A DNA stretch of 64,000 nt from Dehalococcoidia bacterium (GCA_050010555.1 JBEKKV010000004.1:12266-76265), one strand, 5' to 3'. Shown: positions 8,261-29,456, counted from the first letter of the stretch. Numbers and translations are program-made. The notes: generated by a model not told the origin, from the letters alone.

Positions 8261-8270
8261 TTCGATTCGC

Positions 8271-8411: not shown

Positions 8412-8420
8412 TGCGCCTCC

Positions 8421-9158: not shown

Positions 9159-10195
9159 CAGTCTCCGCCTTTCTTGAAGCTGGGCATCGTGGCGAGCGCG
9201 TCACGGCCGAACAGCTTCCGCACGTCCTCAGGCTCTCGCACCGTGTCGTCGAACCAGGTGCGGAGGACGACCAGGAGCCCGGCGACTCCGAACCCGAAGA
9301 CGATGCCGGCGAACATGAGCATGGCGGTCATTTTCAGTTGAAGCGTCGGGCCCTTCGCGCTGGGCTGGTCGACGACCTGGAAATCGGTGTTCGACGAGGA
9401 GACCGACGCCTGCGCCCGCGCCTGGGCGTCGCTCAGCCGGCCGAGGGCGAGCTCGTACTGGGAGAGCCCGATGTTGTACGTGGACTGCAACTGCGCGAGC
9501 TGCTGGGCTTCGGAGGGAGGCCTGGGCGAGGTCAGCGACGCGGGATGCAGCGTTTCGAAGGCCTGCAGGTCCGTGTCCGATTGCGCCAGGCTCTGCTGGT
9601 CGGCGGCGACCTGCTTTGTATAGAAGTCGATGATGGCCGCGGCCTGTGTGCTGTCCTGCCCCAGGTTCTGTTTCTGGTAGGTGTCCAGCGCAGCCTTGAC
9701 CAGGGCTACGTCAGCGTCGGAGCCGCCGCCCTTATAGGTAAAGAGAAGCAGGTTATCGCCGCGCACCTGAGCGCTGAGGTTGGACTTCAGGGCCGCAAGG
9801 GCGCGGGCGTGGTTCGCCGCGACGTCTGATGAGGAAGTGCCGAACAGCGGCTTCGTCAGCGGGAAGTTGGCCAGCAGGCTGCCCAGCGTCGATCTCTTCG
9901 GCCACTGGCCGCTGTTAACCTGGTCGTCGAGGCCGGCAGCGGTGATCAGCGACGAGCGAAACGCCTCCGTGTTCAACCACTGGTTGAAGGCGTCGGCCTG
10001 GACCTGGGCCGGGGGCGCCAGGTTTGTTGTTGCCGTGGAATCGAGCAGGGACGAGGTCTCTGTCCAGGCGGTCGCCTCCACGCTGCTTTGCCGGCCCATC
10101 ATTAGTGCTCCAACGGCAACAAGCAGGGGCAACAGGATCGCTGGCACCAGCCACAACAGCGGATTTCGGAACGCGGTAATCAGATACGGCTTCAT
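9158..10195 (-). CDS. Polysaccharide co-polymerase / chain-length determinant (Wzz/CpsC-like)
   Basis: N- and C-terminal TM helices, coiled-coil, FQVVDQP motif, DDTVR..EDV tail; adjacent to the kinase domain. Confidence 0.8.
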   Translation of the reverse strand: MKPYLITAFRNPLLWLVPAILLPLLVAVGALMMGRQSSVEATAWTETSSLLDSTATTNLAPPAQVQADAFNQWLNTEAFRSSLITAAGLDDQVNSGQWPKRSTLGSLLANFPLTKPLFGTSSSDVAANHARALAALKSNLSAQVRGDNLLLFTYKGGGSDADVALVKAALDTYQKQNLGQDSTQAAAIIDFYTKQVAADQQSLAQSDTDLQAFETLHPASLTSPRPPSEAQQLAQLQSTYNIGLSQYELALGRLSDAQARAQASVSSSNTDFQVVDQPSAKGPTLQLKMTAMLMFAGIVFGFGVAGLLVVLRTWFDDTVREPEDVRKLFGRDALATMPSFKKGGD

Positions 10196-10213
10196 GATTC
10201 CTCTCTTTCTTGC

Positions 10214-11641: not shown

Positions 11642-11704
11642 TGGTTCGTTCCACTCCTACAGAACGTTCGGGTTCCTCCCGCCACCAGCGTCTTCTCCAG
11701 ACGC

Positions 11705-12460
11705 TTAAGGAGGGCCGACGCGAGACACCAAAATGCGCAACACGACCGCTGTGTCGTGGAGCAGGTACCGCTTCCAGAGCCGGCGCGGCTCCATGACCAA
11801 CCGAAATGACCATTCGAGGCCGCGGCGCCGCATCCACATCGGCGCTCTGGACACCTCGCCGCTCAGCATGTCGAAGGCGGCGCCGACGCCTATAACCACA
11901 GGCACGTTCCAGCGCCGCGCATTGGCGTAGTTCCAGAGCTCCTGCCGCGGCGTCGGCAGCGCCACAAGAAGGATGTCCGGCTTTGCAACCGCAATGGCCT
12001 GGCGAATCCTCTCTTCTTCCTCTGGTGAGAAGTCCCCGATTGGCGGTGTATAGCAACCGACCACCGTGAGCCCGGGATAGCGCTCACGCAGGACCTTCGC
12101 CGTCGATTGCGCGACGCCGGGGCCAGCGCCGAGAAGGAACAGTCGATAGCCTTTTTCCGCTGCCAGCCGCGCGCACTGCTCGGCGAGATCGACGCCGGCG
12201 ATTCGCTCGGGAAGCCGACGCCGAAACAGGCGCGAGGCCCAGAGCAAGGGCATGCCATCGGCGACGGCGAGGTCGGCGGCCTCCAGCGCCTCGCGGAAGC
12301 CGGGGCTGGAGCGCGCGTGCCGGAGGTATTCGAGGTTTACCGTCACAATGCGGCGCGGCTTGCCCTCTGCGATGAAGCGCTCAATATGCTGGAGCGTCTC
12401 CCGCAGGGTTACGCTGTCCACGCGCACGCCGGTCACACGAAGACTGTTCTTTGGCATCAT
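11705..12460 (-). CDS. WecG/TagA/CpsF-family glycosyltransferase
   Basis: IVTVN, DGMPLLW, ERIAGVD, PRQE, GVGAAFD, RAP.WM...GLEW.FRL..EPRRLWKRY; start taken at MMPKN. Confidence 0.92.
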   Translation of the reverse strand: MMPKNSLRVTGVRVDSVTLRETLQHIERFIAEGKPRRIVTVNLEYLRHARSSPGFREALEAADLAVADGMPLLWASRLFRRRLPERIAGVDLAEQCARLAAEKGYRLFLLGAGPGVAQSTAKVLRERYPGLTVVGCYTPPIGDFSPEEEERIRQAIAVAKPDILLVALPTPRQELWNYANARRWNVPVVIGVGAAFDMLSGEVSRAPMWMRRRGLEWSFRLVMEPRRLWKRYLLHDTAVVLRILVSRVGPP

Positions 12461-12717
12461 TTGAAACTCAGAATAAAGGCTCGCTGTTAAAACGCTGTGA
12501 ACCGCGCTGCCCGCAGCGTGATCGTCTTGTGAAAAAGCATGCACGAGAGACGCTGGCTTAGCTTCTCGCATAGCGAGATCCCGCCGCCACCGGGCCACCC
12601 TGGGAGTTTAGGGTTGGATCTTCACGGCTACGCGCCGCCACCGGGTCCGCAACCGTGCAAGTGAAGAGGCAGCTTCCGTGCTGCCAACTCTGCGGAGGCG
12701 CTCTGAGTTATGACCCC

Positions 12718-12901: not shown

Positions 12902-14674
12902 CTAGTAGGACAGTGAGAACCTGTCGACGCGCAGGTTGCGGTCGCATGTGCCGTAGTAGTCGTTGTCGAAGATGATCTTGATCAGATGGCCTCCCGCCGG
13001 TATCGATACGGGCGAAGTGTAGGGAGCCCATCGCGTCGCGTATACGTACGTGGACATTACGGTTGCTCCGTCAACGTTGACCACCATGTGGGGCGCCCCA
13101 TTGCATTGGTCGCCTTTGGCCCAAACCGTCAAGCTGGTCACGCCCCTCGGCAGGGTCAGCGTTCGCCAGATCAGCGCGTTGGACCAGATTAGCATTGCTC
13201 GGCCGTCGCTTGCACTGGGGCTTACGTAGACGGCGCCTGCGTTGCTGGGGAACAACCGCATCGCGTCACCGTCGAAGGCGAGCGCGGTGCCACCGACCGG
13301 CGTCGGCGTGATTGTCGGCGGAACGGGCGTCGCTGTCGGAGTCCACGGCACGGGTGTCGCAGTGGGCGTCGGCGGCACGGATGTTGCGGTTGGCGTCGAC
13401 GGCGCCAGCGTGGCCGTCGCTGTCGGGCGGACCGGCGTAGGTGTTGGAGTCTTGGGCACCGGCGTACTCGTCGGAACCAATGTCGCGGTTGGCGTCGACG
13501 CCGCCGGCGTGTTCGTGGGACGCGGCGTGGCCGTCGCTGTCGGGAGGGCCGGCGTAGCTGTCGGAGTCCGCGGCACAGATGTCGCAGTGGGTGTCGGCGG
13601 GACGGAAGTCGTAGTCGGCGTCGACGGCGCCGGCGTGTTCGTCGGACGCGGCGTGCTCGTGGCTGTCGGCGGCAGCGGCGTGCTTGTGGGACGCGGCGTG
13701 CTCGTCGCGGTCGGCACAACGGTCAGTGGTGGTGGTGTCGCAGTCGCCGAGGACCCGTTGGCAAGAGCATTTACCCTGGAGTTGAACATGCCGCACTCGT
13801 ATTTGATGTCTTGCGGCAGGTTCCAGCTCTGGGTGTTCGTCGCGTCGTAGTCTTCGATCCCCGGACCGAAGAGCAGCTTATCGATGTACGGCGAAAGCCC
13901 TGTCAGTTTGTCCTGTACCAACCAGCTCTCGACGAAGGTGGAACGCCGACCATTCAGACACTGGGAGTTGCCCAGCGGTATCTGCCAGACACCGATCTTG
14001 CGACCCATCGTTTGGCTGATCGCCTTGAACCAGTCCTCGAACATCTGAATCTGCGAGGCGGGCCAGGGATAAGTCCCCTTGTATTCCTGGTCGCGGTCCG
14101 AAACGTCAACGTAGATTGATTGCATGCGATCGCCGCCGGCGGCCAGCCAGCAGTCCTTCCAGCTTGCAGCGTCGGAGTCTGCCCCGACGTACGGGAGATT
14201 CCAGGGGCTCATGAAGAAGCCAAGGTTGGCGTTCGACGGGGCTGTCGACAGGAACCTGTCGACCACCTGCTTGCCCGTCGTAGCACAGGCGTTGGCGTTG
14301 CGGATGTAGCCGAACATGTCCGGCTCGACGACGACATCGACGGCGCGCCCGTCGGCCCGAATCGCATTCATTGCGTCGTCCCAAGTCGTCAAGTCAGGCG
14401 TCGTGCTGTCGTAGTTCGTGTAGATGACCAGCACGGGCTTCTTGCCGTTTGCGTAGGCGGTGTTGATGTAGTCGGGGATGATACTTGTGCCGCCGGGGAC
14501 GATGTACTTGTAAACATAGGTCAGCCCTGACGGCTCACTCGGAATCTGACTGGAATAGGCATCCACGCCTATTGGTATGGTTGTTTGGGCGCTGGACGGC
14601 GCCGTCCGAAGCGCCAGGAACGACACAAACGCAGTCGCAGTCAGCGCCAGGCTGAAAAGAAGATACTTCCTCAT
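12902..14674 (-). CDS. Secreted protein: putative glycoside-hydrolase-like domain, Pro/Thr linker, C-terminal CBM60-like domain
   Basis: Signal peptide; VVVEPDMFGY motif; long P/T repeat; C-terminal KGDQCNGAPHM.V.VDG...FDND...DRNL.VD typical of CBM60. Confidence 0.75.
   Translation of the reverse strand: MRKYLLFSLALTATAFVSFLALRTAPSSAQTTIPIGVDAYSSQIPSEPSGLTYVYKYIVPGGTSIIPDYINTAYANGKKPVLVIYTNYDSTTPDLTTWDDAMNAIRADGRAVDVVVEPDMFGYIRNANACATTGKQVVDRFLSTAPSNANLGFFMSPWNLPYVGADSDAASWKDCWLAAGGDRMQSIYVDVSDRDQEYKGTYPWPASQIQMFEDWFKAISQTMGRKIGVWQIPLGNSQCLNGRRSTFVESWLVQDKLTGLSPYIDKLLFGPGIEDYDATNTQSWNLPQDIKYECGMFNSRVNALANGSSATATPPPLTVVPTATSTPRPTSTPLPPTATSTPRPTNTPAPSTPTTTSVPPTPTATSVPRTPTATPALPTATATPRPTNTPAASTPTATLVPTSTPVPKTPTPTPVRPTATATLAPSTPTATSVPPTPTATPVPWTPTATPVPPTITPTPVGGTALAFDGDAMRLFPSNAGAVYVSPSASDGRAMLIWSNALIWRTLTLPRGVTSLTVWAKGDQCNGAPHMVVNVDGATVMSTYVYATRWAPYTSPVSIPAGGHLIKIIFDNDYYGTCDRNLRVDRFSLSY
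13290..13745 (-). repeat. Pro/Thr-rich coding tandem repeats (TATPTP-type)
   Basis: Degenerate repeats encoding PTATSTPRPT/TPTATPVP units within 12902..14674. Confidence 0.85.
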
Positions 14675-15369: not shown

Positions 15370-15867
15370 GTGCCAAGAAAAGCCCCTGCCGCAAAGACCG
15401 CCGGAGCAGGCAAAGCCCAAGTGAATGGTGAGTGGCAGCCGTTGTATCAGGCATACAACGCTGTCTTCAAGGTGCAAGAGTCTGCGCTCATACCGCAGGG
15501 AATCTCCCTGCCACAGTTGCAGCTCCTGGGCCTTCTCGCCCGCGAGCGACGGCCGCTGACCATCAGCGCCCTCGCCAAGTGGATGGTGAAGGAGCCGAAC
15601 AGCCTGACCGGCCTCGTCGACCGCACGGAGGCGAAGGGTTGGGTGCACACGCACGGCGACCCCAAGGACCGCCGCAAGAGGCTGGTTGAGTTCACGAAGC
15701 CCGGCGTCAAGAAATTCGAAGACGCTTCGGCAGTGGCCGACCAGGCGGCAGCGAAGCTGTTCAGCGCGCTGACTCCCGCTGAGAAAGAGCACCTGAAGTC
15801 GTCCTGCGAGAAGATCCGCGACGCCGCTGCGGCCGATCTCTCTCGCAAGCCCGGAGTTCGCGCCTAG
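15370..15867 (+). CDS. MarR-family transcriptional regulator
   Basis: wHTH pattern: LTISALAK...NSLTGLVDR.E.KGWV...DPKDRR...VEFTKPG; AGGAAGG RBS. Confidence 0.92.
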   Translation: MPRKAPAAKTAGAGKAQVNGEWQPLYQAYNAVFKVQESALIPQGISLPQLQLLGLLARERRPLTISALAKWMVKEPNSLTGLVDRTEAKGWVHTHGDPKDRRKRLVEFTKPGVKKFEDASAVADQAAAKLFSALTPAEKEHLKSSCEKIRDAAAADLSRKPGVRA

Positions 15868-16203
15868 AGAACGAGGCACGTCCGCGCCGTCGCCGGCCGC
15901 CGGCACCTCACCGCTCGACCCGCCGTTTCGACGGCTGAGCGAAGTGGAGCTGTAACCGGCCGACGCTGCGATCCCTGGGCCGCTCGGCCTGCCTGGTGAT
16001 AGGCCTGCCGAGCGGCCCTCCCCTGCCCCCGACTTGACATTGCCCCGGTTTCCGCGGATCATATAAGCAGGCTAACGGTAACCGGTTGCCGCATTCGACA
16101 AGCTGGGCGAAGCATTCTTGCCCCGTGGTGGGCCGTTCCCTTGTCTCGATGATTGTGGCAGACTAGATTGCAGCCCGTTGCAATCGGAGGGACGTCTGCG
16201 GAT

Positions 16204-16674
16204 ATGGAAGGCAGCTTGAACGAGAGCGGAGCCGTTGCGGCTCCTCCTTCCGACCCCACGCTGGACGTCGTCTTATTCCGCTGCGTCACGTTGCCGCCGG
16301 GCGGCGCGATCCGGGAAGCCGCGCCCGCCAGACAGCCCGCCCCGCCTTCTGTGCGGGAGATCCGCGTCCCCTGTGCCGGGAAGCTCCAGCCGGAGCACTT
16401 CCTCAAGGCATTCGAGCAAGGAGTCGACCTCGTGCTCGTGGCGACTTGCGGCGACGGCCGCTGCCGCTACCTAGAGGGACGACGCCGCGTCGAACGACGA
16501 ATCGACTTCGTGAAAGACATCCTGGACGACATCGGCATCGGCGGGAAACGACTGGCTCTGATCGAGCCGGCGCCGGACGGCGGCGAGGGCGACCTCGCTC
16601 AAGCCGCAGCCACGGCGCTTGCCGGCCTCCAGCCGAGCCCGCTGTCCAGGAGCGCTAACCAGAGAGGCGGTTAA
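16204..16674 (+). CDS. MvhD/FlpD-like iron-sulfur protein (divergent N-terminus)
   Basis: IRVPCAGK, KAFEQGVD.V.V.TC..G.C.Y.EG, LDDIGIGG.RL; N-terminal CxxC not intact; GGAGG RBS before ATG 16204. Confidence 0.8.
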   Translation: MEGSLNESGAVAAPPSDPTLDVVLFRCVTLPPGGAIREAAPARQPAPPSVREIRVPCAGKLQPEHFLKAFEQGVDLVLVATCGDGRCRYLEGRRRVERRIDFVKDILDDIGIGGKRLALIEPAPDGGEGDLAQAAATALAGLQPSPLSRSANQRGG

Positions 16675-16675
16675 G

Positions 16676-17566
16676 ATGAGTCAGGCTACGGAGACATCGA
16701 CTCTGGCGCGGACGCTGGAAGACGGCCGCCGCGTCGTTACCGCGGAGCTCGTCGCGGCCGGCGTCCGAGACGCGGACGGCGTGAGAACGCTTGCCGCCGC
16801 GTTTCCCTCCTCGCTGGACGCACTCGTCGTCTCCAGCGGCGGCGAACGGGCCATCTCCGCCGTTGTCTCCTCCACGCTGCTGGCGGCGCAAGGCGTCGAG
16901 CCCGTGCTGGCGCTGCTGACCCGCGACCGCAACCGCGAAGCCCTTCTTGCTGACGCCGCCGGAGCCGCCGCCATGGGCGTCCGGAACATCCTTTGCCTGC
17001 CCGGCGACCACCAATCGCTTGGGTTCCAGCCGGAGGCCGCCGGTGTTTACGACGTCGATCCGGTCCAGCTCATCCAACTGCTCGCCGAGGCCGCGGACGG
17101 TGCGCCCTTCTCGCTCTTCGTCGGCGCCGAAGCTTATCCGCACCTGCGCCCGCTGGAGCTGAGCCTCATCGACGCGCGCAAGAAGGCGAAGGCCGGCGCC
17201 CGCTTCCTTCTGACCAGCCCCGTTTTCGATGCCGCGTCATTCGTCGAATGGCTCGACGCCGCGCGGCAGGAGAAGATTGACGAGCATGCCGCCATCATCG
17301 CCTCTGTCCAGCCTTTGGCGGACGTAGCGCAGGCGGAAGCGCTCCAGCGCCGCGGCCGCGTCCCGGAAGCCGTCGTTGCGCGCCTCAGGGACGCGACAGA
17401 CGCCGCATCCGAAGGTATCGCTATCTGCGCGGAGACCGCGTCGAAGCTGGCCAGCCTTGAGGGCGTACGCGGCGTGCATATCGCCTGGGGCGGGACGCCG
17501 GGCGTCGCCGCCGAGGTCATCTCGCGCGCGGGCTTGAACGGCAGCGCGGGGAAAGGCGCTTCATGA
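16676..17566 (+). CDS. metF: Methylenetetrahydrofolate reductase-like flavoprotein (divergent MetF)
   Basis: VVTAEL, TRDRNR..L, GVRNILCLPGDH, KK.KAGA.F..T.PVFD, EGVRGVHI. Confidence 0.8.
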   Translation: MSQATETSTLARTLEDGRRVVTAELVAAGVRDADGVRTLAAAFPSSLDALVVSSGGERAISAVVSSTLLAAQGVEPVLALLTRDRNREALLADAAGAAAMGVRNILCLPGDHQSLGFQPEAAGVYDVDPVQLIQLLAEAADGAPFSLFVGAEAYPHLRPLELSLIDARKKAKAGARFLLTSPVFDAASFVEWLDAARQEKIDEHAAIIASVQPLADVAQAEALQRRGRVPEAVVARLRDATDAASEGIAICAETASKLASLEGVRGVHIAWGGTPGVAAEVISRAGLNGSAGKGAS

Positions 17567-18129
17567 CGACCGTCATCGAACGCCCGCTCTCCCTTTCGAC
17601 GCCGCCCGCGGCCCTGCAGGCGCTCCTCAAAAGCGACGCGCTCTCGTTGTGCTTCCAGTGCCGCAAGTGCACCGCCGGCTGCCCCGTCGCGGCCGAAGCG
17701 GACGTAAAGCCGCACGAGATCGTCCGCCTGGTTCAGCTCGGCGCGACCGACGAGCTCCTGGCCAGCCGCTTCATCTGGGAGTGCACGTCCTGCGGAACCT
17801 GCGAAGCCCGCTGCCCGCAGGCGGTCGCACTGCCCGCGGCCATCGACGCGCTGCGACGCCTCTCGCGCGAAAGGAAAGTCGCCGCCGATCCCGCTGTTCC
17901 CGCCTTCAACGACATCTTCCTCGCCACGGTGCGACAGCTCGGCCGGACGCATGAGCTGGCGCTGATGGCGGCGTTCAAGCTGCGCACGCGCCGCTTCTCG
18001 CAAGACTTCGCCAGGTTCCCGACGATGCTGCGCAAGGGCAAGTTCGCGCTCCTGCCGCGCCTGCACGGCGACCGGGCCAAGCGTCAGCGCATCTTCCGTC
18101 GCGCGCGAGAGCAAAGGAAGGCGCCGTGA
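17563..18129 (+). CDS. hdrC: Heterodisulfide reductase subunit C-like
   Basis: CFQCRKCTAGCP and IWECTSCGTCEARCP [4Fe-4S] motifs. Confidence 0.9.
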   Translation: MTTVIERPLSLSTPPAALQALLKSDALSLCFQCRKCTAGCPVAAEADVKPHEIVRLVQLGATDELLASRFIWECTSCGTCEARCPQAVALPAAIDALRRLSRERKVAADPAVPAFNDIFLATVRQLGRTHELALMAAFKLRTRRFSQDFARFPTMLRKGKFALLPRLHGDRAKRQRIFRRAREQRKAP

Positions 18130-19013
18130 GCTACGTCTTCTACCCGGGCTGCTCGCTGGAATCGACGGCGAAGGACTACGCGCTCTCCACGAACGCGGTT
18201 GCCGCGGCCCTGGGAATCGACCTGCCGGAGCTTGCCGGCTGGACTTGCTGCGGCTCCACGGCCGCCCACCAGACCGATGCCCTGCTGGCGCTGGCGCTGC
18301 CGGCCGCCAACCTCGCCGCCGCTTCGGGAAAGACCGTGGCCGTTGCCTGCGCCGCCTGCTACAGCCGCCTGAAACTGGCGAACCATGAGATAGCAGGCGA
18401 CCCGGATAGCCGCCGCCGTGTTGCCGACGCCCTCGGCGCCGACTACGACGGCTCGACGCCGGTGAAGCACGTCCTGGAGATACTGCGGGACGACGTTGGC
18501 ATGGCCGCTATCGCCGACAAGGTCAAGAGGCCGCTCGCCGGCCTGCGCGTTGCCGCCTACTACGGCTGCCTCCTCGTGCGGCCGCCGTCGATAATGCGCT
18601 TCGACGACGCCGAGAACCCGGCGGTCATCGACAAGCTGATGACCGCCGCCGGCGCCGAAGCCATCGACTGGTCCGCCAAGACGGACTGCTGCGGCGCCAG
18701 CTTCTCCATAACAAAGACAGAGATCGTCCTCCGCCTCTCTCGCGCGGTCCTGACAGCAGCGCGAGAGGCCGGCGCCGACTGCATCGTCACGGCCTGCCCC
18801 CTCTGCCAGTTCAACCTGGACATGCGGCAGAGCGACATCGAGAAGAAGAACAACGAGCATTTCGGGCTGCCCGCATTCTATTTCACACAGCTCCTGGGCC
18901 TCGCGCTTGGCCTGCAATCGCAGCGACTGGGCCTGCAAAGCCTACTGGTCGACCCGCTGCCGCTGTTGACGCGAAAAGGCATCCTCCAGCCGGAGAAGGC
19001 GGTAGCGCGATGA
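18126..19013 (+). CDS. hdrB: Heterodisulfide reductase subunit B-like
   Basis: YPGCSL, two CCG domains (WTCCG, DCCGA), YYGCLLVRP, TACPLCQFNLD. Confidence 0.93.
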   Translation: MSYVFYPGCSLESTAKDYALSTNAVAAALGIDLPELAGWTCCGSTAAHQTDALLALALPAANLAAASGKTVAVACAACYSRLKLANHEIAGDPDSRRRVADALGADYDGSTPVKHVLEILRDDVGMAAIADKVKRPLAGLRVAAYYGCLLVRPPSIMRFDDAENPAVIDKLMTAAGAEAIDWSAKTDCCGASFSITKTEIVLRLSRAVLTAAREAGADCIVTACPLCQFNLDMRQSDIEKKNNEHFGLPAFYFTQLLGLALGLQSQRLGLQSLLVDPLPLLTRKGILQPEKAVAR

Positions 19014-22000
19014 CGGACGAACGACCCAGCGGAGCGGTTCTCGTCTACGGCGGCGGCATCGCCGGGATACAGGCGTCGCTGGACCTGGCCGACTCCGGCT
19101 TCAAGGTCTACCTCGTCGAGCGCTCCTCCGCGGTCGGCGGCCGCATGCCGCAGCTCGACAAGACGTTCCCGACCGGCGACTGCTCCATGTGCATCCTCTC
19201 GCCCAAGCTCGTCGAGTGCGGGCGCAACAAGAACATCGAGATCATCACGCTGGGCGAGATCGAAGGGATCAGCGGCGAGCCGGGCCGCTTCGACGTCACC
19301 GTCAAGCGGAACGCCCGCTACGTCGACCTGGCGAAGTGCAACGGCTGCGGCGACTGCGCGGAGGTCTGCCCCGTCAGCCTGGAAAGCGCCTTCGACCGCG
19401 GGCTGGGCCAGCGCAAGGCCATCTTCCGCGAATACCCGCAGGCCGTGCCCAACGCCTTTACCATCGCCAAAGCGGACGGCGAGGCGCCCTGCAAGCTGGC
19501 CTGCCCGGCCGGCGTGAACGCGCAGGCGTACGTCGCCCTTATCGGGCAGCGGCGCTTCAAGGAGGCCTATGAGGTCATTCGCGAGCAGTGCCCGCTGCCG
19601 GCGGTCTGCGGCCGCATCTGCCAGCACCCCTGCGAGACGGAGTGCAACCGCGCCGAAGTCGACGCCCCCGTCGCCATCCGCGACCTGAAGCGCTTCGCCA
19701 CCGACTGGGTATACGCCCACCGCGACGAGCTCGGCGACGACGAGCCGGAGGCCTTCGCGGATCTGCGCGATCAGCGGGTCGCCGTTATCGGCGGCGGGCC
19801 GGCGGGCTTGACGGCGGCGCACGACCTCAGCCGTCTGGGCTACCGCGCCACGATTTTCGAGGCGCTGCCGTTCCTCGGCGGCATGCTGCGACTCGGCGTG
19901 CCCGCCTACCGCCTGCCTTACGACGTGCTGGATTTCGAGATCGGCCGTCTGTTGAACGACCGCATCGACGTCCGCCTGGACTGCCGCGTCGGCCGCGACG
20001 TGACGCTGGACAGCCTACGCGAGGAAGGGTACGGGGCGTTCTTCGTCGCTTGCGGCGCCCACAAGAGCGAACGCCTCAGCATCGAGGGCGTCGACCTGCC
20101 CGGCGTCGTGCAGGGCCTCGACTTCCTGAAGGCCGCGAACCTGGGCGAGCCCGTCTCCATCGGCAGGCGGGTCGCCGTTATCGGCGGCGGCAACGTGGCG
20201 ATGGACGCCTCCCGCACGGCGCTGCGGCTCGGCGCGGAGAAAGTCACTGTCGTCTACCGGCGTTCGCGCGCGGAGATGCCCGCCCTGGACGAAGAGATCC
20301 GCCTGGCCGAAGAAGAGGGCGTCGAGTTCCTCTACCTTGCGAACCCCGTGCGCGCCATCGGCGAAGGCTCCGTCACGGGCCTCGAATGCCTGCGCATGAA
20401 GCTGGGTGAGCCGGACGAAAGCGGCCGGCGGCGTCCCCAGCCAATCGAAGGCTCCAATTTCATTTTCAACGCCGATACGGTCATCCTCGCCATCGGCCAG
20501 AGCTCGGACCTGGAGGGCCTGCCTTTCGCCGGCGCTTCTCGCATCGATTGCGACGACTGCCTGTCGACGTCGCTTCCGGGCGTTTTCGCCGGCGGCGACG
20601 CGGTCCTCGGCCCGGCTTCGCTCGTCGAGGCGATGGCGCACGGGCATCGCGCCGCCCAGGCGATCCACGACTACCTGCGCGGAGCGTCGCCTCAGCCGAG
20701 GCAAAGCGATGCCGGCAAGACAGCGGCGCCGAACCCCAGCCCGAACGCCACTGTCGAGGCGCGACACGCCATGCCGCAGTCGCCCGTCGTCGAGCGCCAG
20801 CGCGATATGCGCGAGATCGACCTCGGCTACTCGGAGGACGAGGCAGTGGCCGAAGCCCAGCGATGCCTCAACTGCGGCCTTTGCTCCGACTGCCGCCTCT
20901 GCGAGACGGTCTGCGGCCCGGGCGCCATCGTCCACGACATGCAGCCGCGGACGGAGACGCTGCGGGTGGGTGCCGTCATCCTGACGCCCGGTACGGAGGA
21001 GATCGAAGCGTCGCTGCGCGGCGAGTACGGCCACGGGCGCTACGCCAACGTCCTCAGCTCCATCCAGTTCGAGCGCATGCTCAGCGCCTCCGGCCCGACG
21101 GAAGGCACGCTGCTCCGTCCCTCCGACGGCGGCCCGGTTCGGCGCGTCGCTTTCATCCAGTGCGTTGGCTCCCGCGACAGCGCCTGCGGCAACGGCTACT
21201 GCTCGGCGGTCTGTTGCATGTCGGCGACGAAGGAGGCGATGGTCGCGCTGGAGCACGATCCGAACATGGAGATCGCCGTCTTCTGCATCGACGTGCGCGC
21301 CTTCGGCAAGGAGTTCGACCGCTACGTCAGCCGCGCCCAGAGCGAGTACGGCGTCCGCTACGTCCGCGCCATCCCCTCACGCGTCGTCGAGAGGCCGAAC
21401 ACGAAAGACCTCAGCCTCCGCTATTTCGACGAGGAGGGCGCGGAGAAGCTGGCGGACTTCGACCTCGTGGTGCTGTCCATCGGCCTGAAGCCCGGAGCGA
21501 GCGCCGGCGAGCTGGCCCGACGCCTCGGCGTGGAGCGCGACGAGTTCGGCTTCTGTCGCACCGACCGCCTTACGCCCATTACCTCGTCGCGGCCCGGCGT
21601 TTTCGTCGCCGGCGCGTTCCAGGAGCCGAAGGACATTCCGGAATCGGTGGCGCAGGCAAGCGCGGCGGCCGCGGCGGCGATGGAGCTGCTGCGGGAAGGC
21701 CGCGGCACGGAGGTCACGCGCCACGAGTACCCCTGGGAGCGCGACGTCACGGACGAAGCGCCACGCGTCGGCGTGTTCATCTGCCACTGCGGCCACAATA
21801 TCGCCTCCGTCGTCGATGTCGAGGCGGTGAAGCGCGAGGCGGCGGCGATGGGCAACGTCGTCCACGCGGAAACGGACCTTTACACCTGCTCCGACAACTG
21901 CCAGGAGGCGATTAAGCAGGTCATCAAGCAAAAACGGCTGAACCGCGTCGTCGTAGCCTCCTGCTCGCCGCGAACGCACGAGCCCTTGTTCCAGGAGACG

Positions 22001-23434
22001 CTGCGCGAGTCCGGCCTCAACCCGTTCCTCTTCGCTATGACGAACATCCGCGACCAGTGCTCGTGGGTGCACCGCGACGACCCCGTGCAGGCGACGGAGA
22101 AGGCCTGCGACCTGATGCGCATGGCGGTCGGGCGGGCGCGAATGCTGCGCTCGCTGGAGCGGAGCCGCCTGCCGATAACGCGCTCGGCGCTGGTGCTCGG
22201 CGGCGGGCTGGCCGGCATGACGGCGGCGCTTTCGCTCGCCGATCAAGGCTTCGAGACGCACCTGGTGGAGAAGACCGAGGCGCTCGGCGGCAACCTGCGC
22301 CAGCTCCACTACACGCTGGAAGGCGACGACATCCAGCAGTTCGCGGCGGGCCTGATCGAGCGGGTCCAAGCGCACAGGTTGATTCATACGCATATCAACA
22401 CGGACCTTCTCGAGCTCAACGGTCACGTCGGCAACTTCAAGAGCGTCGTTATGTCGAACGGGCGCGAGGAGACGATTCCCCACGGCGTCGCCATCATCGC
22501 GACCGGGGGCATCGAGCGCGCGACAGAGGCGCATCTGCATGGGAAGAACGAGCGCGTGGTAACCCAACGCAAGTTGGAGGCACGACTCGCCGCCGGCGAC
22601 GCGGCAGGCCTCGGCGAAAGCCCGACGGTGGTGATGATCCAGTGCGTCGGGTCACGCACCGAAGAGAACAACTATTGCAGCCGCGTTTGCTGCGCAGAGG
22701 CGGTCAAGAACGCCCTTGCCCTCAAATCGGCGCGACCGGACGCGCGTGTCGTTGTCCTTATGAAGGACATGCGCACTTACGGCTTCCGCGAGACGTACTA
22801 TCAGAAGGCGCGGGAGGCGGGCGTGCTGTTCATCCGCTACCGCGAGGACGAGGAGCCCATAACCAGCGACGACGGCGGCCTGACGGTGCGCGTCACCGAC
22901 GCCGGAACGCGTCGAAAGCTCGTCTTGCGACCGGACCTGCTCGTGCTCAGCACCGGCATCGCGCCGGCGGCGGACAACCCGAAGCTGTCGTCCATCATCC
23001 GAACGTCGCTAACCGCCGACGGCTTCTTCCTGGAGGCGCACCCCAAGCTGCGACCGGTCGACCTGGCCAGCGAAGGCGTTTTCGTCTGCGGGCTGGCGCA
23101 TTCGCCCCGCTTCGTCGATGAGACGATTGCGCAGGCGCTGGCGACGGCCGCGCGGGCGGCGACGGTGCTTTCCAAGCCGTACCTGGAAGTCGGCGGGCAG
23201 ATCGCCAAAGTCGACGCCTCCGCCTGCACGGCCTGCATGACCTGCGTCAAGGTGTGCCCATACGGCGCTCCCGTCCTAGTCGGCCACAAGGTCGTGATTC
23301 AGGCGGCGGCGTGCCTGGGCTGCGGTAGCTGCGCCGCGGCCTGCCCCGCGCAGGCGATTCAGCTTCAGAACCAGGAGGAAGGCCAGGTCTCGGCCATGCT
23401 GGACGAGCTCCTGGTGGGAATTCGACATGATTGA
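19010..23434 (+). CDS. hdrA: Large HdrA-like flavoprotein with inserted GltD-like NAD(P)H-binding module (HdrL type)
   Basis: GGGIAG..DKTFPT.DCSMC; ferredoxin; PCKLACPAG..CGRICQHPCE; GGGPAG and GGGNVAMD; two CVGSR/CS.VCC modules; CHCG.NI; C-terminal ferredoxin. Confidence 0.93.
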   Translation: MTDERPSGAVLVYGGGIAGIQASLDLADSGFKVYLVERSSAVGGRMPQLDKTFPTGDCSMCILSPKLVECGRNKNIEIITLGEIEGISGEPGRFDVTVKRNARYVDLAKCNGCGDCAEVCPVSLESAFDRGLGQRKAIFREYPQAVPNAFTIAKADGEAPCKLACPAGVNAQAYVALIGQRRFKEAYEVIREQCPLPAVCGRICQHPCETECNRAEVDAPVAIRDLKRFATDWVYAHRDELGDDEPEAFADLRDQRVAVIGGGPAGLTAAHDLSRLGYRATIFEALPFLGGMLRLGVPAYRLPYDVLDFEIGRLLNDRIDVRLDCRVGRDVTLDSLREEGYGAFFVACGAHKSERLSIEGVDLPGVVQGLDFLKAANLGEPVSIGRRVAVIGGGNVAMDASRTALRLGAEKVTVVYRRSRAEMPALDEEIRLAEEEGVEFLYLANPVRAIGEGSVTGLECLRMKLGEPDESGRRRPQPIEGSNFIFNADTVILAIGQSSDLEGLPFAGASRIDCDDCLSTSLPGVFAGGDAVLGPASLVEAMAHGHRAAQAIHDYLRGASPQPRQSDAGKTAAPNPSPNATVEARHAMPQSPVVERQRDMREIDLGYSEDEAVAEAQRCLNCGLCSDCRLCETVCGPGAIVHDMQPRTETLRVGAVILTPGTEEIEASLRGEYGHGRYANVLSSIQFERMLSASGPTEGTLLRPSDGGPVRRVAFIQCVGSRDSACGNGYCSAVCCMSATKEAMVALEHDPNMEIAVFCIDVRAFGKEFDRYVSRAQSEYGVRYVRAIPSRVVERPNTKDLSLRYFDEEGAEKLADFDLVVLSIGLKPGASAGELARRLGVERDEFGFCRTDRLTPITSSRPGVFVAGAFQEPKDIPESVAQASAAAAAAMELLREGRGTEVTRHEYPWERDVTDEAPRVGVFICHCGHNIASVVDVEAVKREAAAMGNVVHAETDLYTCSDNCQEAIKQVIKQKRLNRVVVASCSPRTHEPLFQETLRESGLNPFLFAMTNIRDQCSWVHRDDPVQATEKACDLMRMAVGRARMLRSLERSRLPITRSALVLGGGLAGMTAALSLADQGFETHLVEKTEALGGNLRQLHYTLEGDDIQQFAAGLIERVQAHRLIHTHINTDLLELNGHVGNFKSVVMSNGREETIPHGVAIIATGGIERATEAHLHGKNERVVTQRKLEARLAAGDAAGLGESPTVVMIQCVGSRTEENNYCSRVCCAEAVKNALALKSARPDARVVVLMKDMRTYGFRETYYQKAREAGVLFIRYREDEEPITSDDGGLTVRVTDAGTRRKLVLRPDLLVLSTGIAPAADNPKLSSIIRTSLTADGFFLEAHPKLRPVDLASEGVFVCGLAHSPRFVDETIAQALATAARAATVLSKPYLEVGGQIAKVDASACTACMTCVKVCPYGAPVLVGHKVVIQAAACLGCGSCAAACPAQAIQLQNQEEGQVSAMLDELLVGIRHD

Positions 23435-23888
23435 GACGGAAGAGATGAAGGCCGGCCCGACGACGCAGCGCTGCGAAATCCTGGCGTTCTGCTGCAACTT
23501 CTGCGCCTACGCCGCCGCCGATCTGGCCGGCTCCCGGCGCATGCAGTACCCGGCGAACGTACGCATCGTCCACGTGCCGTGCAGCGGCAAGATGGAGGTG
23601 CAGCAGATACTGGCAGCATTCGAGCACGGCATCGACGGCGTTCTCATCGCGGGCTGCCTGGAGGGCGGCTGCCACTTCACCGAGGGAAACCTGCGGGCGA
23701 AGCGTCGCGTCGCGGCCACGCGAAAGCTTTTGGACGACATCGGCATCGGCGGCGAACGTCTGCGGATGGTCAACCTCTCCGCGTCGGAGGCGCCGACGTT
23801 TGTGGCGCGGGTGCGGGAGATGGTGGAGACCGTTGAACGGCTGGGACCCAGCCCGCTGCGTCTGGCTGAGAATAGAGGGCAAGAATGA
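23427..23888 (+). CDS. mvhD: MvhD/FlpD [2Fe-2S] subunit
   Basis: FCCNFCAYAAADLAG, VPCSGK, GCLEGGCHFTEGN. Confidence 0.93.
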   Translation: MIETEEMKAGPTTQRCEILAFCCNFCAYAAADLAGSRRMQYPANVRIVHVPCSGKMEVQQILAAFEHGIDGVLIAGCLEGGCHFTEGNLRAKRRVAATRKLLDDIGIGGERLRMVNLSASEAPTFVARVREMVETVERLGPSPLRLAENRGQE

Positions 23889-24553
23889 TAGTCGCAACCG
23901 GAAAATCAATCGCAGAAGTCAGAAGTCTGCTCATGCGTCATGACAAGGTGCTGTTCGTCGGCTGCGGGACGTGCGTCACCGTCTGCCTTGCCGGCGGCGA
24001 CCGGGAAGTCGGCATCATGTCCTACGCGATGCGCATGGCGCGACGCCTGGAGGGCCGGCCGATCGAAATCGAGCAGATGACTATCGAGCGGCAGTGCGAG
24101 AACGAGTTCATCGCCGACCTGGCGGCGGCCGCGGCCCGCAACGAGGCGATCCTGTCGTTCGGTTGCGGCGCCGGCGTCCAGGCGATAGCGGAGCGCTTCC
24201 CGGACAAGCCCGTCTACGCCGCGCTCGACACGCAATTCATCGGCATCCTCGAAGAGCAGGGCGTCTGGACGGAGAAGTGTCTGGGCTGCGGCGCCTGCGT
24301 CCTGGCCGACTTCGGCGGCATCTGCCCCATCACCCGTTGTGCCAAGCGAATGCTCAACGGTCCGTGCGCCGGCTCCAGCGAAGACGGCTGCGAGGTCGAC
24401 CCGGAACGACCCTGCGCCTGGCAGATAATCTACCGTCGACTGGAAGCTATCGGGCAACTCGACAGGCTGGCGGCGATCGTTCCGGCGCGCGACTGGCGGA
24501 CGAGCTGGCACGCGGGCGCCCGACGCGTCGTGCGGGAAGAGCACAGAATCTAA
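23885..24553 (+). CDS. metV: MetV (methylene-THF reductase Fe-S/Zn subunit)
   Basis: GCGTCVTVC.AGG, ERQCE, CGAGVQ, C.GCG.C, GICPITRCAK.MLNGPC.G, CEVD...CAW. Confidence 0.9.
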   Translation: MIVATGKSIAEVRSLLMRHDKVLFVGCGTCVTVCLAGGDREVGIMSYAMRMARRLEGRPIEIEQMTIERQCENEFIADLAAAAARNEAILSFGCGAGVQAIAERFPDKPVYAALDTQFIGILEEQGVWTEKCLGCGACVLADFGGICPITRCAKRMLNGPCAGSSEDGCEVDPERPCAWQIIYRRLEAIGQLDRLAAIVPARDWRTSWHAGARRVVREEHRI

Positions 24554-24583
24554 CCGGCTTTCGACGCCCCTAAGGGCCTCCCG

Positions 24584-25903
24584 TCAGCCGCTGACGACCC
24601 CCGTCGCCTGCAGCACGGCCGTGAACGCGTATACGACCGTCAGCCCGATGAGCGCGCCCGTTACGGCCCATGCCCCGACGTTCCAGCCGGTCGAGTTCGT
24701 CCAGCGCCCCATTATCTTCGAATCGTTCAGCACCTTCACCATCATGATGAGGATGACCGGCAGAAGGACAGCGCCGACAACGTTGGGGATGAGGAGCAGG
24801 ATGAGGAGCGGCATGCCCGGGATGAGCACGGCAGCCGCGCCGACGACGAGCAGCCCGCCGAACAGGCCGAAGAACACAGGCGCCTCGCGGATCGGCAAGT
24901 TGACGCTGCGCTCCCAGCCAAACGCGCCGCATACGGCGTAGGCCGTCGTGAGCGGTAGAACCGCCGCCGCCAGCAGCGACGCGTTCAGCAGGCCGATAGC
25001 GAAGAGATTGGCCGAGAAGTCGCCAGCCAGCGGTCGCAGCGACTGCGCAATCTCCTCCACCGTCCCTGAAGGCTCAGCGTGCGCGTGCAGCGTCGCGGCT
25101 GTCGTCACGATGATGAAGAAGGCGATCGTCGCGGATGCGAACGCCCCGACGAACACGTCCAGACGCTCCAGCTTGAACTCGCGCTCCCCCAGGCCTTTGT
25201 CCACAACCGTCGATTGCAGATAGAACTGCTGCCACGGCGTTATCGTCGTGCCGATGACGCCGATGAGGATGGAGAGATACGCCAGGTTGGCCTGAACGTG
25301 CGGAACGACCGAATGCGTCGCCACGGCGCCCCAATCGGGCCTCGCCAGGAAGCCGGTGATGATGTAGGCCACGGATACGGCCGAGAACGCCAGCAGCACT
25401 CTCTCCATTCGCCGGTACGAGCCGTAGGCCACGACGACGAAGACCAGGAGCGCCGCCAAGGGCACGGTTATATAGCGCGACACGTGAAATATCTCCGATG
25501 CGCTGGCAATTCCGGCGAACTCCGCAATCACGGTAGCGGTGTTGGCAACTAGCAGAATGAGCAAAGCGAAGGATGTGATGCGGACGCCGAAACGCTCGCG
25601 GATTATCTCGCCGAGGCCTTTGCCGGTGATGGCGCCCATTCGAGCCGCCATCTCGCCGACAATCGCCAGGGCGGCGGCAGCGAGGATCAGCGTCCAGAGG
25701 AGGTCGTAGCCGAAGCGTGAGCCGGCGATGGAGTAGCCGGCAATCCCCGTCGAATCATCGTCGACGATGCCGGTAATCAGGCCCGGCCCCATGACGGCCA
25801 GGAACAGCGCCGCCCGCCGCCAGGGGCCCATGCGGTTCAGATACACCAGGAGGCACAACACAGACCGCCCAAGTCGCGTCGGAGGGATAGCCCGGTTTAT
25901 CAT
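24584..25903 (-). CDS. Nramp-family divalent metal transporter (NrmT-like Mg/Mn type)
   Basis: MGPGLITG..DDD..GI, GTTITPW.QFY.QS, about 11 TM segments. Confidence 0.9.
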   Translation of the reverse strand: MINRAIPPTRLGRSVLCLLVYLNRMGPWRRAALFLAVMGPGLITGIVDDDSTGIAGYSIAGSRFGYDLLWTLILAAAALAIVGEMAARMGAITGKGLGEIIRERFGVRITSFALLILLVANTATVIAEFAGIASASEIFHVSRYITVPLAALLVFVVVAYGSYRRMERVLLAFSAVSVAYIITGFLARPDWGAVATHSVVPHVQANLAYLSILIGVIGTTITPWQQFYLQSTVVDKGLGEREFKLERLDVFVGAFASATIAFFIIVTTAATLHAHAEPSGTVEEIAQSLRPLAGDFSANLFAIGLLNASLLAAAVLPLTTAYAVCGAFGWERSVNLPIREAPVFFGLFGGLLVVGAAAVLIPGMPLLILLLIPNVVGAVLLPVILIMMVKVLNDSKIMGRWTNSTGWNVGAWAVTGALIGLTVVYAFTAVLQATGVVSG

Positions 25904-27471: not shown

Positions 27472-28245
27472 TTGGAGCGTGACACTATCGACGAGCAAAG
27501 CCTACGACAGCTACTCGAGTCCGTATCGAAAGGGACGACGGACATAGAAGGCGCGCTGGAGAGGCTGCGCCACCTTCCATATGAGGACATCGGCTTCGCC
27601 AAGCTGGACCACCATCGCGCCCTCCGCGACAGCCTGCCGGAGGTCGTGCTGGGCCAGGGGAAGACGGCGGAGCAGGTGGTGACGATCGCGGAGCGCCTCG
27701 CCGAGCGGGCCGGACGCCTGCTGGTGACGCGAATCGACCGCGACGTATTCGATCAAATCGTGAAAAAAGTCCCCGACGCCGTCTACCACGACATCGCACG
27801 GGCGGCGACGGTGGACCGCCATCCGACTGAGGCGCTGCCGGGCGTCTGCCTCGTCTGCGGCGGTACGGCGGACCTGCCGGTGGCGGAGGAGGCGGCGGTC
27901 ACGGCGACGCTTATGGGCAGCGGCGTCGAGCGCGTTTACGACGTGGGTGTCGCCGGGCTGCATCGTCTTCTCGACCATCTTCCGATGCTGCGCGAGGCCC
28001 GCGTGCTCGTCGTCGTCGCCGGTATGGAGGGCGCCCTTCCCAGCGTCGTCTCCGGCCTCGTCGCGATGCCGGTCATCGGCGTGCCGACGTCCGTGGGCTA
28101 TGGCGCCAGCTTCCAGGGGGTCGCGCCCCTGCTGACGATGCTGAACAGTTGCGCGCCGGGCGTCGCCGTCGTCAACATCGACAACGGCTTTGGCGCCGGC
28201 TACCTGGCGGCCGTCATTAACCGGCTCGCCCACGCCCAGGGCTGA
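27472..28245 (+). CDS. larB: Nickel pincer cofactor biosynthesis protein LarB
   Basis: FAKLDHHR, PEVV...GKT, GGTADLPVAEEA, DVGVAGLHRL, AGMEGAL, PTSVGYG, MLNSCAPG..VVNIDNGFGA. Confidence 0.93.
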   Translation: MERDTIDEQSLRQLLESVSKGTTDIEGALERLRHLPYEDIGFAKLDHHRALRDSLPEVVLGQGKTAEQVVTIAERLAERAGRLLVTRIDRDVFDQIVKKVPDAVYHDIARAATVDRHPTEALPGVCLVCGGTADLPVAEEAAVTATLMGSGVERVYDVGVAGLHRLLDHLPMLREARVLVVVAGMEGALPSVVSGLVAMPVIGVPTSVGYGASFQGVAPLLTMLNSCAPGVAVVNIDNGFGAGYLAAVINRLAHAQG

Positions 28246-28262
28246 GCGCGAAGGAGCCGAAT

Positions 28263-29456
28263 CTGACGCGCATCGCTTATCTCGACTGCTTCTCCGGCAT
28301 CAGCGGCGACATGCTGCTCGGCGCCGTCGTCGACGCCGGTCTGCCGCTGGCGACGCTACAGGCGGAGCTGGCGAAGCTGAACGTCTCCGGCTACCGGCTG
28401 ACGGCGGAACGGACGCAGCGCGCCGAGCTTGCGGCCACGAAGGTGACGGTCGAGCTTGCGCCGGACGCGCCGTCCCTTCCACGGCTCCGCGACGCGCTGG
28501 CCGTCATCGAAGGCAGCAGCCTGCCGACCGCCGACAGGGAGAAGGCATCGGCCGTTGTCCGTCGCCTCGCCGAGGCGGAGGCGCGCGTCCACGGCGTCGA
28601 AGTCGACTCCGTCGTCCTGCACGAGTTGGGCTCTGTCGACACGCTGATCGACGTCATTGGAGCGGTGGCAGGCCTACGTCTCCTGGGCGCCGAGCAGGTC
28701 TTCGCGTCTCCACTGCCCGCCGGCCGCGGCGAGGTGCGAGGCGCACACGGAGCGCTGCCGGTCCCGGCGCCTGCGACGCTGGAGCTCCTCGCGACGGCGA
28801 ATGCGCCCATCTCCGACGCCGACGAGCCGGGGGAACTCGTGACGCCGACGGGCGCGGCCATCGTCGCTACGCTGGCGAGCTTCCAGCGACCGGCGATGAC
28901 GCTCCAACGAGTCGGCTACGGCGCCGGCAGCCGCAACACGGCTGGTCGGCCCAATGTTCTCCGTCTCTGGCTGGGCGAGCCGTTGCCGGACACAGGCAAC
29001 GCCATCCTCCTCATTGAGACGAACATAGACGACATGAGCGCGGAGCTGCTGGGCTTCGTGCAGGAGCGTCTGTTCGCGGCGGGCGCGGCGGACGTGTGGT
29101 TCACGCCCATCCAGATGAAGAAGAACCGTCCGGCAATCAAGCTTTCACTGCTTTGCAGCGTCGAGCGGGAAGAGGGAGTCACGCGCATCCTGCTGGAGGA
29201 GACGTCGACGCTGGGCGTGCGGGTGCAGGAGGTGCGCCGTCACGAGGCGCAGCGCGAGACATTCGATTTCGAGTCGAGCCTTGGCCCGGCGGCTGTGAAG
29301 GTCAAGCGGCTGCCCGGACGCAAGCCGCAGGTCTCGCCGGAGTACGAAGCGTGCCGTCGCCTGGCGCTGGCGCACGGGATGCCGCTGGCGGAGGTCTACC
29401 GCATCGTCGAATCGGAAGCGCTTGCGCAGCTCGATGCAGGCGCGGCGGGGCGATAG
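28263..29456 (+). CDS. larC: Nickel pincer cofactor biosynthesis protein LarC
   Basis: IAYLDCFSGISGDMLLGA, AEA.VHG, HE.G..D, HG.LPVPAPAT, ELVTPTGAA, ETNIDD, IQMKKNRP, PEYE; probable CTG start at 28263. Confidence 0.92.
   Translation: MTRIAYLDCFSGISGDMLLGAVVDAGLPLATLQAELAKLNVSGYRLTAERTQRAELAATKVTVELAPDAPSLPRLRDALAVIEGSSLPTADREKASAVVRRLAEAEARVHGVEVDSVVLHELGSVDTLIDVIGAVAGLRLLGAEQVFASPLPAGRGEVRGAHGALPVPAPATLELLATANAPISDADEPGELVTPTGAAIVATLASFQRPAMTLQRVGYGAGSRNTAGRPNVLRLWLGEPLPDTGNAILLIETNIDDMSAELLGFVQERLFAAGAADVWFTPIQMKKNRPAIKLSLLCSVEREEGVTRILLEETSTLGVRVQEVRRHEAQRETFDFESSLGPAAVKVKRLPGRKPQVSPEYEACRRLALAHGMPLAEVYRIVESEALAQLDAGAAGR

Follow-up and report, generated by a model that had tools for sequence, protein, structure and literature searches.

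The closest described system is the HdrCBA-MvhD-MetVF methylene-tetrahydrofolate (methylene-THF) reductase of Moorella thermoacetica. Its HdrA is a 162.8-kDa protein of 1487 amino acids (aa) in which an extra ferredoxin and thioredoxin-reductase (TrxR)-like domain is interrupted by a GltD domain, whereas the C-terminal part (residues 922-1487) lacks the inserted ferredoxin, and glutamate/lysine (E/K) pairs are given at E696/K750 and E1204/K1246 (Kremp et al. 2022, PMC9430772). The complex is listed as transferring electrons from 2 NADH to methylene-H4F and "?" (PMC5861303), and the physiological donor of MetVF-type enzymes is debated (PMC8760232). Statements on Moorella are drawn from sections of PMC9430772, PMC5861303, PMC5736913 and PMC6085437. 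Here we analysed a 64,000-nucleotide stretch of a Dehalococcoidia bacterium genome (GCA_050010555.1, JBEKKV010000004.1:12266-76265; hereafter the window), in which positions 16204-24553 hold seven plus-strand genes in the order mvhD'-metF-hdrC-hdrB-hdrA-mvhD-metV. This operon probably encodes a Moorella-type (Hdr-type) MetFV methylene-THF reductase complex that works with a second redox partner.

The seven genes abut or overlap, and they were named by Pfam and NCBIfam profile searches, alignments to solved structures (PDB) and motif reading of the translations. Their products fall into the same six protein families as the Moorella complex, and gene calls, family matches and overlapping junctions all bear out the gene content and tight packing that a first-pass annotation of this DNA had reported. 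Stop and start codons overlap at five of the six junctions (metF/hdrC, hdrC/hdrB, hdrB/hdrA, hdrA/mvhD and mvhD/metV, by 4, 4, 4, 8 and 4 nt, respectively), and terminator-like sites occur in the cluster at chance frequency (7 found, 4.6 ± 2.3 expected). Contigs from three other peat DNA runs span mvhD'/metF, metF/hdrC, hdrC/hdrB and hdrA/mvhD/metV with zero differences; the compact gene order is thus real and not an assembly artefact. The same annotation had also been right that the order is different: Moorella has hdrC-hdrB-hdrA-mvhD-metV-metF, whereas here metF precedes hdrCBA, metV comes last and a second, Cys-poor mvhD' comes first. Two further differences from Moorella, both treated below, are a genome with no match to AcsB, CooS or FTHFS and relatives that hold three GltB-like genes inside the cluster. 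The operon is of the Moorella type already described, and what differs here is its gene order, the extra MvhD' and the genome context; taken alone, it amounts to a known enzyme with its genes in another order, in an organism that is no acetogen.

Aligned to solved MvhD chains, the mvhD' product keeps four of the six canonical cysteines, the first and third of the CCxxC motif being lost. Its start is uncertain, since the frame is open from TTG 16153 too. The longest metF frame begins at TTG 16619, but ATG 16676 is the likelier start, as a GAGAGG motif precedes it and the mvhD' stop lies 1 nt upstream. MetV has 12 invariant cysteines in a 27-row alignment, and no relative of it was found among solved structures.

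HdrA resembles its Moorella counterpart in size (1474 versus 1487 aa), in domain order and in having E/K pairs in both modules, the likeness being drawn from the published description. A profile scan and PDB alignments confirmed the earlier proposal that HdrA consists of two HdrA modules plus a GltD-like pyridine-nucleotide module. The first part of module 1 matches residues 150-303 of 7bkb_A, with the GGGIAG motif and CNGCGDCAEVCP present, and its second part aligns to residues 293-563 of 9sfi_A with E688/K741 conserved. The insert between them combines Fer4_20 with a two-Rossmann Pyr_redox_2 domain (motifs GGGPAG and GGGNVA). It scores 545.4 bits with PRK12771, above the cut-off of 516, and 385 bits with gltA, and its structural matches are NfnB 4ylf_B (E 1.6e-95), GltD 6s6s_G (residues 161-563) and 9bov_A. 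Module 2 aligns to residues 2-239 and 339-636 of 5odc_A and keeps E1190/K1233; residues 240-338 of 5odc_A are unmatched, and the module is without the inserted ferredoxin. The E/K pair, a mark of bifurcating HdrA, is therefore present in both modules. The built-in NAD(P)H module had been called atypical relative to Moorella, a view that we abandon because the Moorella HdrA, as characterized in PMC9430772, shares the plan with near-identical E/K positions.

Several other described systems share parts of this arrangement. In Sporomusa ovata, MetVF and HdrCBA-MvhD are likewise encoded together and HdrA has tandem TrxR-like modules; however, in the account of PMC9430772 that HdrA (101 kDa) is without a GltD domain and has the E/K pair in only one module. 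HdrL of Desulfobacterium autotrophicum, named in 2009, is described as an HdrA/glutamate-synthase-small-subunit fusion with an NADH-binding region and is followed by mvhD, as here, whereas its loci adjoin dsr or fdh genes and contain selenocysteine (PMC2702500, compared by description). HdrA9-11 of ANME-1 carry an NfnB-like insertion of ~500 aa in the HdrA inserted ferredoxin domain, as here, but they are archaeal, and the portion of PMC9012536 consulted does not report metFV and a second, tandem HdrA module in one cluster with them. Marine Anaerolineae hold hdrABC-mvhD-metVF, another Hdr-MetVF cluster in Chloroflexota; unlike the present case, they are reported with a complete Wood-Ljungdahl pathway, a Moorella-like order and fused hdrBC (PMC5736913).

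Table 1. Features of the operon and its upstream region (positions in the window), with the glutamate-synthase-like genes X1-X3 found in the cluster of relatives
Feature	Position	Strand	Length	Description
sigma-70-like promoter candidate	16034..16062	+		TTGACA-17-GATCAT, 10/12 consensus matches only
operator-like palindrome candidate GGTAACCGGTTGCC	16077..16090	.	14 nt	15 nt after -10, 127 nt before mvhD' ATG
mvhD'	16204..16674	+	156 aa	Cys-poor MvhD/FlpD-like; FlpD 82.6 bits, profile positions 13-103 of 123 only
metF	16676..17566	+	296 aa	MetFV-type methylene-THF reductase flavoprotein (predicted); PF02219 (MTHFR) 71.6 bits, cut-off 24
hdrC	17563..18129	+	188 aa	HdrC-like, 2x[4Fe-4S]; Fer4_17 and related families; two CxxCxxCxxxCP motifs
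hdrB	18126..19013	+	295 aa	HdrB-like; two CCG domains, both C...CC...CxxC patterns intact
hdrA	19010..23434	+	1474 aa	tandem HdrA modules with GltD/NfnB-like insert
hdrA module 1, first part	19010..19468	+	residues 1-153	FAD-binding TrxR-like start and first half of inserted ferredoxin
GltD/NfnB-like NAD(P)H-FAD-2[4Fe-4S] module	19469..20845	+	residues ~154-612	inserted in ferredoxin domain
hdrA module 1, second part	20846..21724	+	residues 613-~905	second half of inserted ferredoxin and TrxR-like domain
hdrA module 2	21725..23434	+	residues ~906-1474	N-terminal HdrA domain, TrxR-like domain, C-terminal 2x[4Fe-4S] ferredoxin
mvhD	23427..23888	+	153 aa	full MvhD/FlpD; FlpD 162.9 bits over positions 1-123; CCNFC...C...CxxxxC
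metV	23885..24553	+	222 aa	Fe-S/Zn partner of MetF (predicted); PF12225 121.5 bits, above cut-off
X1			~470 aa	ferredoxin-type Cys motifs and partial Glu_synthase domain
X2			~520 aa	Fer4 and full Glu_synthase FMN domain
X3			~875 aa	amidotransferase-like and GXGXG

From these sequence features we infer complex formation, the substrates, the physiological direction and bifurcation. The GltD/NfnB-like module, placed within the inserted ferredoxin domain of HdrA module 1, would use its FAD to oxidise NAD(P)H. The tandem HdrA would relay the electrons by way of its Fe-S clusters and its two TrxR-like flavins, whose sites both have an E/K pair, to HdrC/HdrB and the MvhD proteins and onward through MetV to the flavin of MetF, which would interconvert methylene-THF and methyl-THF. 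Flavin-based bifurcation or confurcation with a second redox partner probably keeps the reaction in energetic balance, and a trio of glutamate-synthase-like genes, X1-X3, is a candidate for this partner. A simpler enzyme, a plain non-bifurcating NAD(P)H:methylene-THF oxidoreductase with Hdr and MvhD as an electron wire and no second acceptor, appears improbable to us. It would be energetically feasible, as electron flow from NAD(P)H to methylene-THF is exergonic alone (E0' -320 versus -200 mV, the value of -200 mV being cited in PMC5861303), and HdrA homologues are mentioned from non-bifurcating complexes (PMC9430772). However, both TrxR-like modules have kept the E/K pair, and ~8 Fe-S clusters, three flavin sites and intact HdrB CCG sites would be a large outlay for a wire. 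Mock is said to have found in 2014 that NADH alone gave no methylene-THF reduction by the Moorella enzyme.

Several observations weigh against a Moorella-type reductase with a second partner. Every Hdr equivalog score lies under its curated cut-off (HdrA2, 962 against 1100; HdrB, TIGR03288, 190.6 against 345 bits; HdrC, TIGR03290, 63.4 against 160 bits). MetF is far from characterised methylene-THF reductases (MTHFRs), with 36.8 bits to E. coli MetF and changed residues at the Q183 and F223 positions. Its matches to solved MTHFRs are weak, the Asp of "GD" being kept at the E. coli D120 position, and it shares 31-37% identity with MetF both of loci with metVF after hdr and of four mvhD-metV-metF-X1-X2-X3 loci. 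In the work on related enzymes, MetVF of Sporomusa was purified without the Hdr subunits, and purification of the Moorella enzyme is stated to have been impossible (PMC9430772, as far as its account goes). The sole RNA run (X23, a soil metatranscriptome) gave contigs that are 90-95% alike on parts of mvhD', hdrB, hdrA and metV; at this identity they are those of relatives and no proof of transcription here. Most relatives, moreover, hold three further genes within the cluster, which may mean that the machine has more parts than these seven proteins, and the description of a "self-contained" machine in the first-pass annotation is doubtful. The remaining point is the genome context. No match to CdhC/AcsB, FTHFS or the Prismane family (CooS) was found in this peat Chloroflexota genome (2.17 Mb, 73 contigs, 97.78% complete). 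The only pathway in which this enzyme type was studied is thus missing, and a sink or source for methyl-THF is not evident. The suggested use in the Wood-Ljungdahl pathway is accordingly not supported, and of the pathway genes that had been proposed for checking (acsB, cooS, fhs and folD) only FolD is present. It should be noted that the AcsB search was able to find bacterial AcsB, giving strong matches in eight of the 12 Moorella-order genomes and a positive result in 144 of the 401 surveyed from the class. The 12 Moorella-order comparison genomes are those of the nine complete and three cut loci described below, minus L054 and plus L047.

The low Hdr scores also bear on another possible function, that of a genuine disulfide reductase (heterodisulfide-type or for another thiol/disulfide), with MetFV supplying or withdrawing its electrons or being no more than an operon neighbour. 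In methanogens, the two CCG cluster motifs make up the disulfide-reducing site; both are intact in the present HdrB, and its 190 bits are alike to methanogen HdrB and an SdhE-type CCG protein. However, all methanogen Hdr equivalog scores are under cut-off, no mvhAG, fdhAB or thiol-cofactor genes were found near the operon when the flanks were scanned, and the association with metF and metV does not vary among the MetVF-linked loci, all of which makes such a function very unlikely. No NfnA/PyrK-like partner subunit was found in the cluster either. The flanks consist of unrelated opposite-strand genes, with polysaccharide synthesis upstream and Nramp, MgtE and Lar genes downstream.

Near-full-length relatives of this HdrA are common among the sequences searched. 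Against a protein collection, 7996 of 8000 scored candidates matched, the best 120 all being 1438-1640 aa long with 60-96% identity over 97-100% coverage, and 379 stretches of species-representative genomes encode HdrA relatives. Gene order was compared by scoring the frames of 77 genome loci against the seven proteins of the operon. Only two loci, L007 and L014 (HdrA identity 95 and 94%), have the order seen here. The Moorella order hdrCBA-mvhD-metV-metF is complete in nine loci and truncated at a contig end in three, the HdrA of which aligns over residues 1-1468 at 46-52% identity; mvhD-metV-metF-hdrC-hdrA-mvhD occurs in two (L047 among them). Thermoplasmatota, Spirochaetota and Sumerlaeota loci (L020-L044, L050, L052, L065 and L076) have the large HdrA without metFV, in a different conserved row, hdrC-hdrB-hdrA (~650 aa)-hdrA (~1500 aa)-mvhD, followed after ~1.1 kb by hdrC-hdrA (~1030 aa). 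In 12 of the 77 loci, metF and hdrC are separated by 5.4 kb; these come from metagenome-assembled genomes (MAGs) labelled Dehalococcoidia or Chloroflexia (73-82% HdrA identity) and Myxococcota or "delta proteobacterium" (59-66%). The assignment to Chloroflexota, guessed in the first pass without knowledge of the origin, agrees with the nearest loci, which are labelled Dehalococcoidia/Chloroflexia MAGs at 73-95% HdrA identity. In a FastTree phylogeny of 50 full-length HdrA proteins (27 of the 77 loci were left out, as they had no single HdrA frame of 1380 aa or more), the present HdrA and its two close kin fall inside the clade with the 5.4-kb stretch (12 rows, support 100), among MetVF-linked HdrA. 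Given the midpoint root of this tree, the compact order is a derived one.

The 5.4-kb stretch holds three genes resembling the glutamate synthase large subunit, which we denoted as X1, X2 and X3, giving relatives the ten-gene order mvhD'-metF-X1-X2-X3-hdrC-hdrB-hdrA-mvhD-metV. X1 and X2 each combine an FMN domain with an N-terminus of the 2x[4Fe-4S] type. Against the GltB equivalog the trio scores 206.9, under the cut-off of 1047, the domains being present in pieces. Compared with GltBD glutamate synthase, the HdrA insert is the GltD homologue and the trio supplies the amidotransferase-like, FMN and GXGXG domains; unlike in GltBD, the alpha part is spread over three proteins that have additional N-termini of the ferredoxin type, and the beta part lies inside HdrA. 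The genome analysed here also has the trio, on contig C1 at 66917-72447 (L084:8942-14472) between a thiolase and an aldo-keto reductase gene, as located by tblastn; its X1, X2 and X3 are 61, 78 and 75% identical to those of L011. In full-text literature searched we found no description of the ten-gene cluster, although papers beyond that library could contain one. The cluster is widespread and very regular, with records from peat, wetland and sediment in at least two phyla.

These findings raise the possibility that the seven proteins are part of a larger system in which the trio is the obligatory partner and the GltD-like module of HdrA serves as its beta subunit, which we consider plausible but on balance unlikely. 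The trio lies between metF and hdrC in the 12 Dehalococcoidia and Myxococcota loci, and the linkage is kept in metagenomes: in a survey started from X1 (best 80 of 571 relatives; the metF count requires at least 1000 nt of room upstream), metF stands directly upstream of X1 in 60 of 63 loci, an MvhD-type gene precedes metF in 53 of 56, and hdrC follows X3 in 26 of 28. The distance rule accounts for two of the three loci counted as lacking metF and for one of the two counted as lacking hdrC, so that only L144 is truly without metF and only L141 without hdrC/hdrB. X3 orthologues are present in all 15 genomes of the metF-first clade (one with fragments only) versus 3 of the 12 Moorella-order genomes, and tblastn found no other Glu_synthase-domain gene in the genome. 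An X3-type gene is held by 36 of the 401 class genomes surveyed. Nine of these have metV ~6.5 kb after X3 on the same strand, which is the ten-gene order, and eight have it ~3.9 kb upstream; the four of the latter that were fetched read mvhD-metV-metF-X1-X2-X3 with no hdr gene adjacent. This occurrence of the trio with MetVF in eight class genomes also favours an obligatory partnership. In three genomes, all of the present genus and including this one, the trio is unlinked; in one more, a weaker MetV-like match lies unlinked, whereas four gave no match to MetV and 11 have matches on different contigs.

Other findings speak against an obligatory partnership. The two operons lie on different contigs here and 1.3 Mb apart in a complete chromosome of the same genus, clusters of the Moorella order work without a trio nearby, and the four class genomes without a MetV match have X3 nonetheless. 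Within residues ~1-45 of X3, a conserved leader of ~32 aa precedes the likewise conserved motif EEGGCGVTGFAC, which contains the putative catalytic, amidotransferase-type Cys; as this Cys is not N-terminal, glutaminase activity is uncertain. In addition, a stand-alone 508-aa GltD-like gene on contig C3 could serve the trio. A complex prediction for MetF, MetV and X1 gave a score of 0.00, which is neither for nor against binding. Two ideas were tried and ruled out in the course of this comparison. HdrA does not hold the only GltD-like module of the genome, the C3 gene (with no NfnA beside it) being another, and trio-linked clusters are not confined to genomes without the Wood-Ljungdahl pathway, as AcsB/CdhC occurs in six genomes with the ten-gene order (one family) and in all eight with the six-gene order. 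Two Myxococcota copies of X3 carry a repetitive insert of up to ~150 residues in the leader. The six-gene operons fetched, from four Dehalococcoidia genomes (L095-L098), are without hdrCBA, have AcsB in the genome and in L097 show a fused X1-X2. The order mvhD-metV-metF-X1-X2-X3 may represent another kind of partner module for MetVF. In relatives, the genes around the ten-gene and six-gene operons are not conserved.

If the larger system exists, NAD(P)H and the methylene-/methyl-THF couple would be linked to a 2-oxoglutarate/glutamate-type reaction. Oxidation of methyl-THF or NAD(P)H could then, for instance, power a reductive amination; alternatively, ferredoxin could be reduced at the expense of both exergonic reductions. 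MetFV and the trio would be the two acceptor/donor modules served by the paired HdrA modules and the paired MvhD proteins. In that case, the second redox partner that is missing for the Hdr-type or MetVF-type methylene-THF reductases of these lineages would be the trio. For the Moorella-type reductase that we favour, whose second acceptor still stands as "?" (PMC5861303, in the part consulted), the trio provides a concrete and cloneable candidate partner.

Sequences upstream of the operon add to this picture. Promoter-like sites number two in 8.9 kb against 0.7 expected. Near the promoter candidate lies an operator-like palindrome, GGTAACCGGTTGCC, and a one-letter variant of it stands 58 nt before X1 on contig C1. 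The genome has five sites with at most one mismatch to the ideal palindrome, compared with ~1 expected from base composition, the other three lying inside long frames; among the 13 sites with at most two mismatches, only those of mvhD' and X1 are promoter-proximal. The palindrome occurs upstream of mvhD' in all five Dehalococcoidia loci examined (L007, L014, L085, L086 and L089), 45 nt upstream of X1 in two genomes of the same genus and, with two mismatches, in one six-gene operon; it was not seen in the two Myxococcota loci or the two other six-gene operons examined. In this genus, both unlinked operons thus carry the same promoter-near palindrome, a further point for a larger system. However, the palindrome was noticed post hoc, and its case rests on conservation and not on the genome count alone. 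We tentatively speculate that Hdr-MvhD-MetFV and the trio form one redox system, encoded by an ancestral ten-gene operon that is split here into two co-regulated operons. The palindrome may resemble the NrpR operator of methanogens. Genes for NrpR-like repressors (NRD1_2 and HTH_12) directly follow the operon in two relatives (L010:13680-14717 and L098:13664-14662), and the genome analysed here has a homologue at C34:20464-21450. A search of Rfam that allowed E values up to 1 found nothing in 15400-24900 or in the sequence before X1, and hence no riboswitch clue.

Elsewhere in the genome, a second MTHFR is fused to a homocysteine S-methyltransferase on contig C16, beside a Cys/Met pyridoxal-phosphate (PLP) enzyme. 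With this separate biosynthetic MTHFR, the operon is not needed for methionine synthesis. GcvT is present, and MttB was not found in the genome. A 2-oxoacid:ferredoxin oxidoreductase (POR) and a NiFe hydrogenase large subunit are present, COX1 was not found in the genome, and the organism is a fermentative anaerobe. In the metF-first clade, AcsB gave a strong match in 1 of 15 genomes and weak short matches in two, and in none of the four genomes of the present genus. The retention of Hdr-MetFV in anaerobes without the Wood-Ljungdahl pathway implies a role wider than acetogenesis.

Further genes of possible relevance to methyl transfer were observed on other contigs. A second MetV-like frame (PF12225, 93 bits) stands at the start of contig C12 (3-797; L092), where any upstream partner genes are lost at the contig end. 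Contig C33 has a stand-alone pterin-binding methyltransferase-like gene (L093:6078-6959) and a corrinoid protein gene adjoining that of a 791-aa protein (L093:15672-18869). The 791-aa protein has no Pfam match at E up to 0.1, and its likeness to a RACo-type activator appears only in Atlas (0.89, under the lead threshold of 0.9). The pterin-binding and corrinoid genes could form a methyl-transfer system or, equally, a split methionine synthase.

In the remainder of the window, a polysaccharide-synthesis row occupies 30-12598 on the minus strand (GNAT, deacetylase, hexapeptide transferases, Wzy-like ligase, GT2, flippase, sugar transferase and WecG-type genes) and is followed at 12902-14674 by a gene for a 590-aa protein with a CBM60 module. 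Three very long frames of 1504, 1251 and 1237 aa lie at 44285-52541 on the minus strand and 58356-62069 on the plus strand. At 27472-29456, an AIR-carboxylase-like (LarB-type) gene stands beside a nickel-insertion (LarC-type, PF01969, 411.8 bits) gene, a pairing that suggests nickel-pincer cofactor synthesis.

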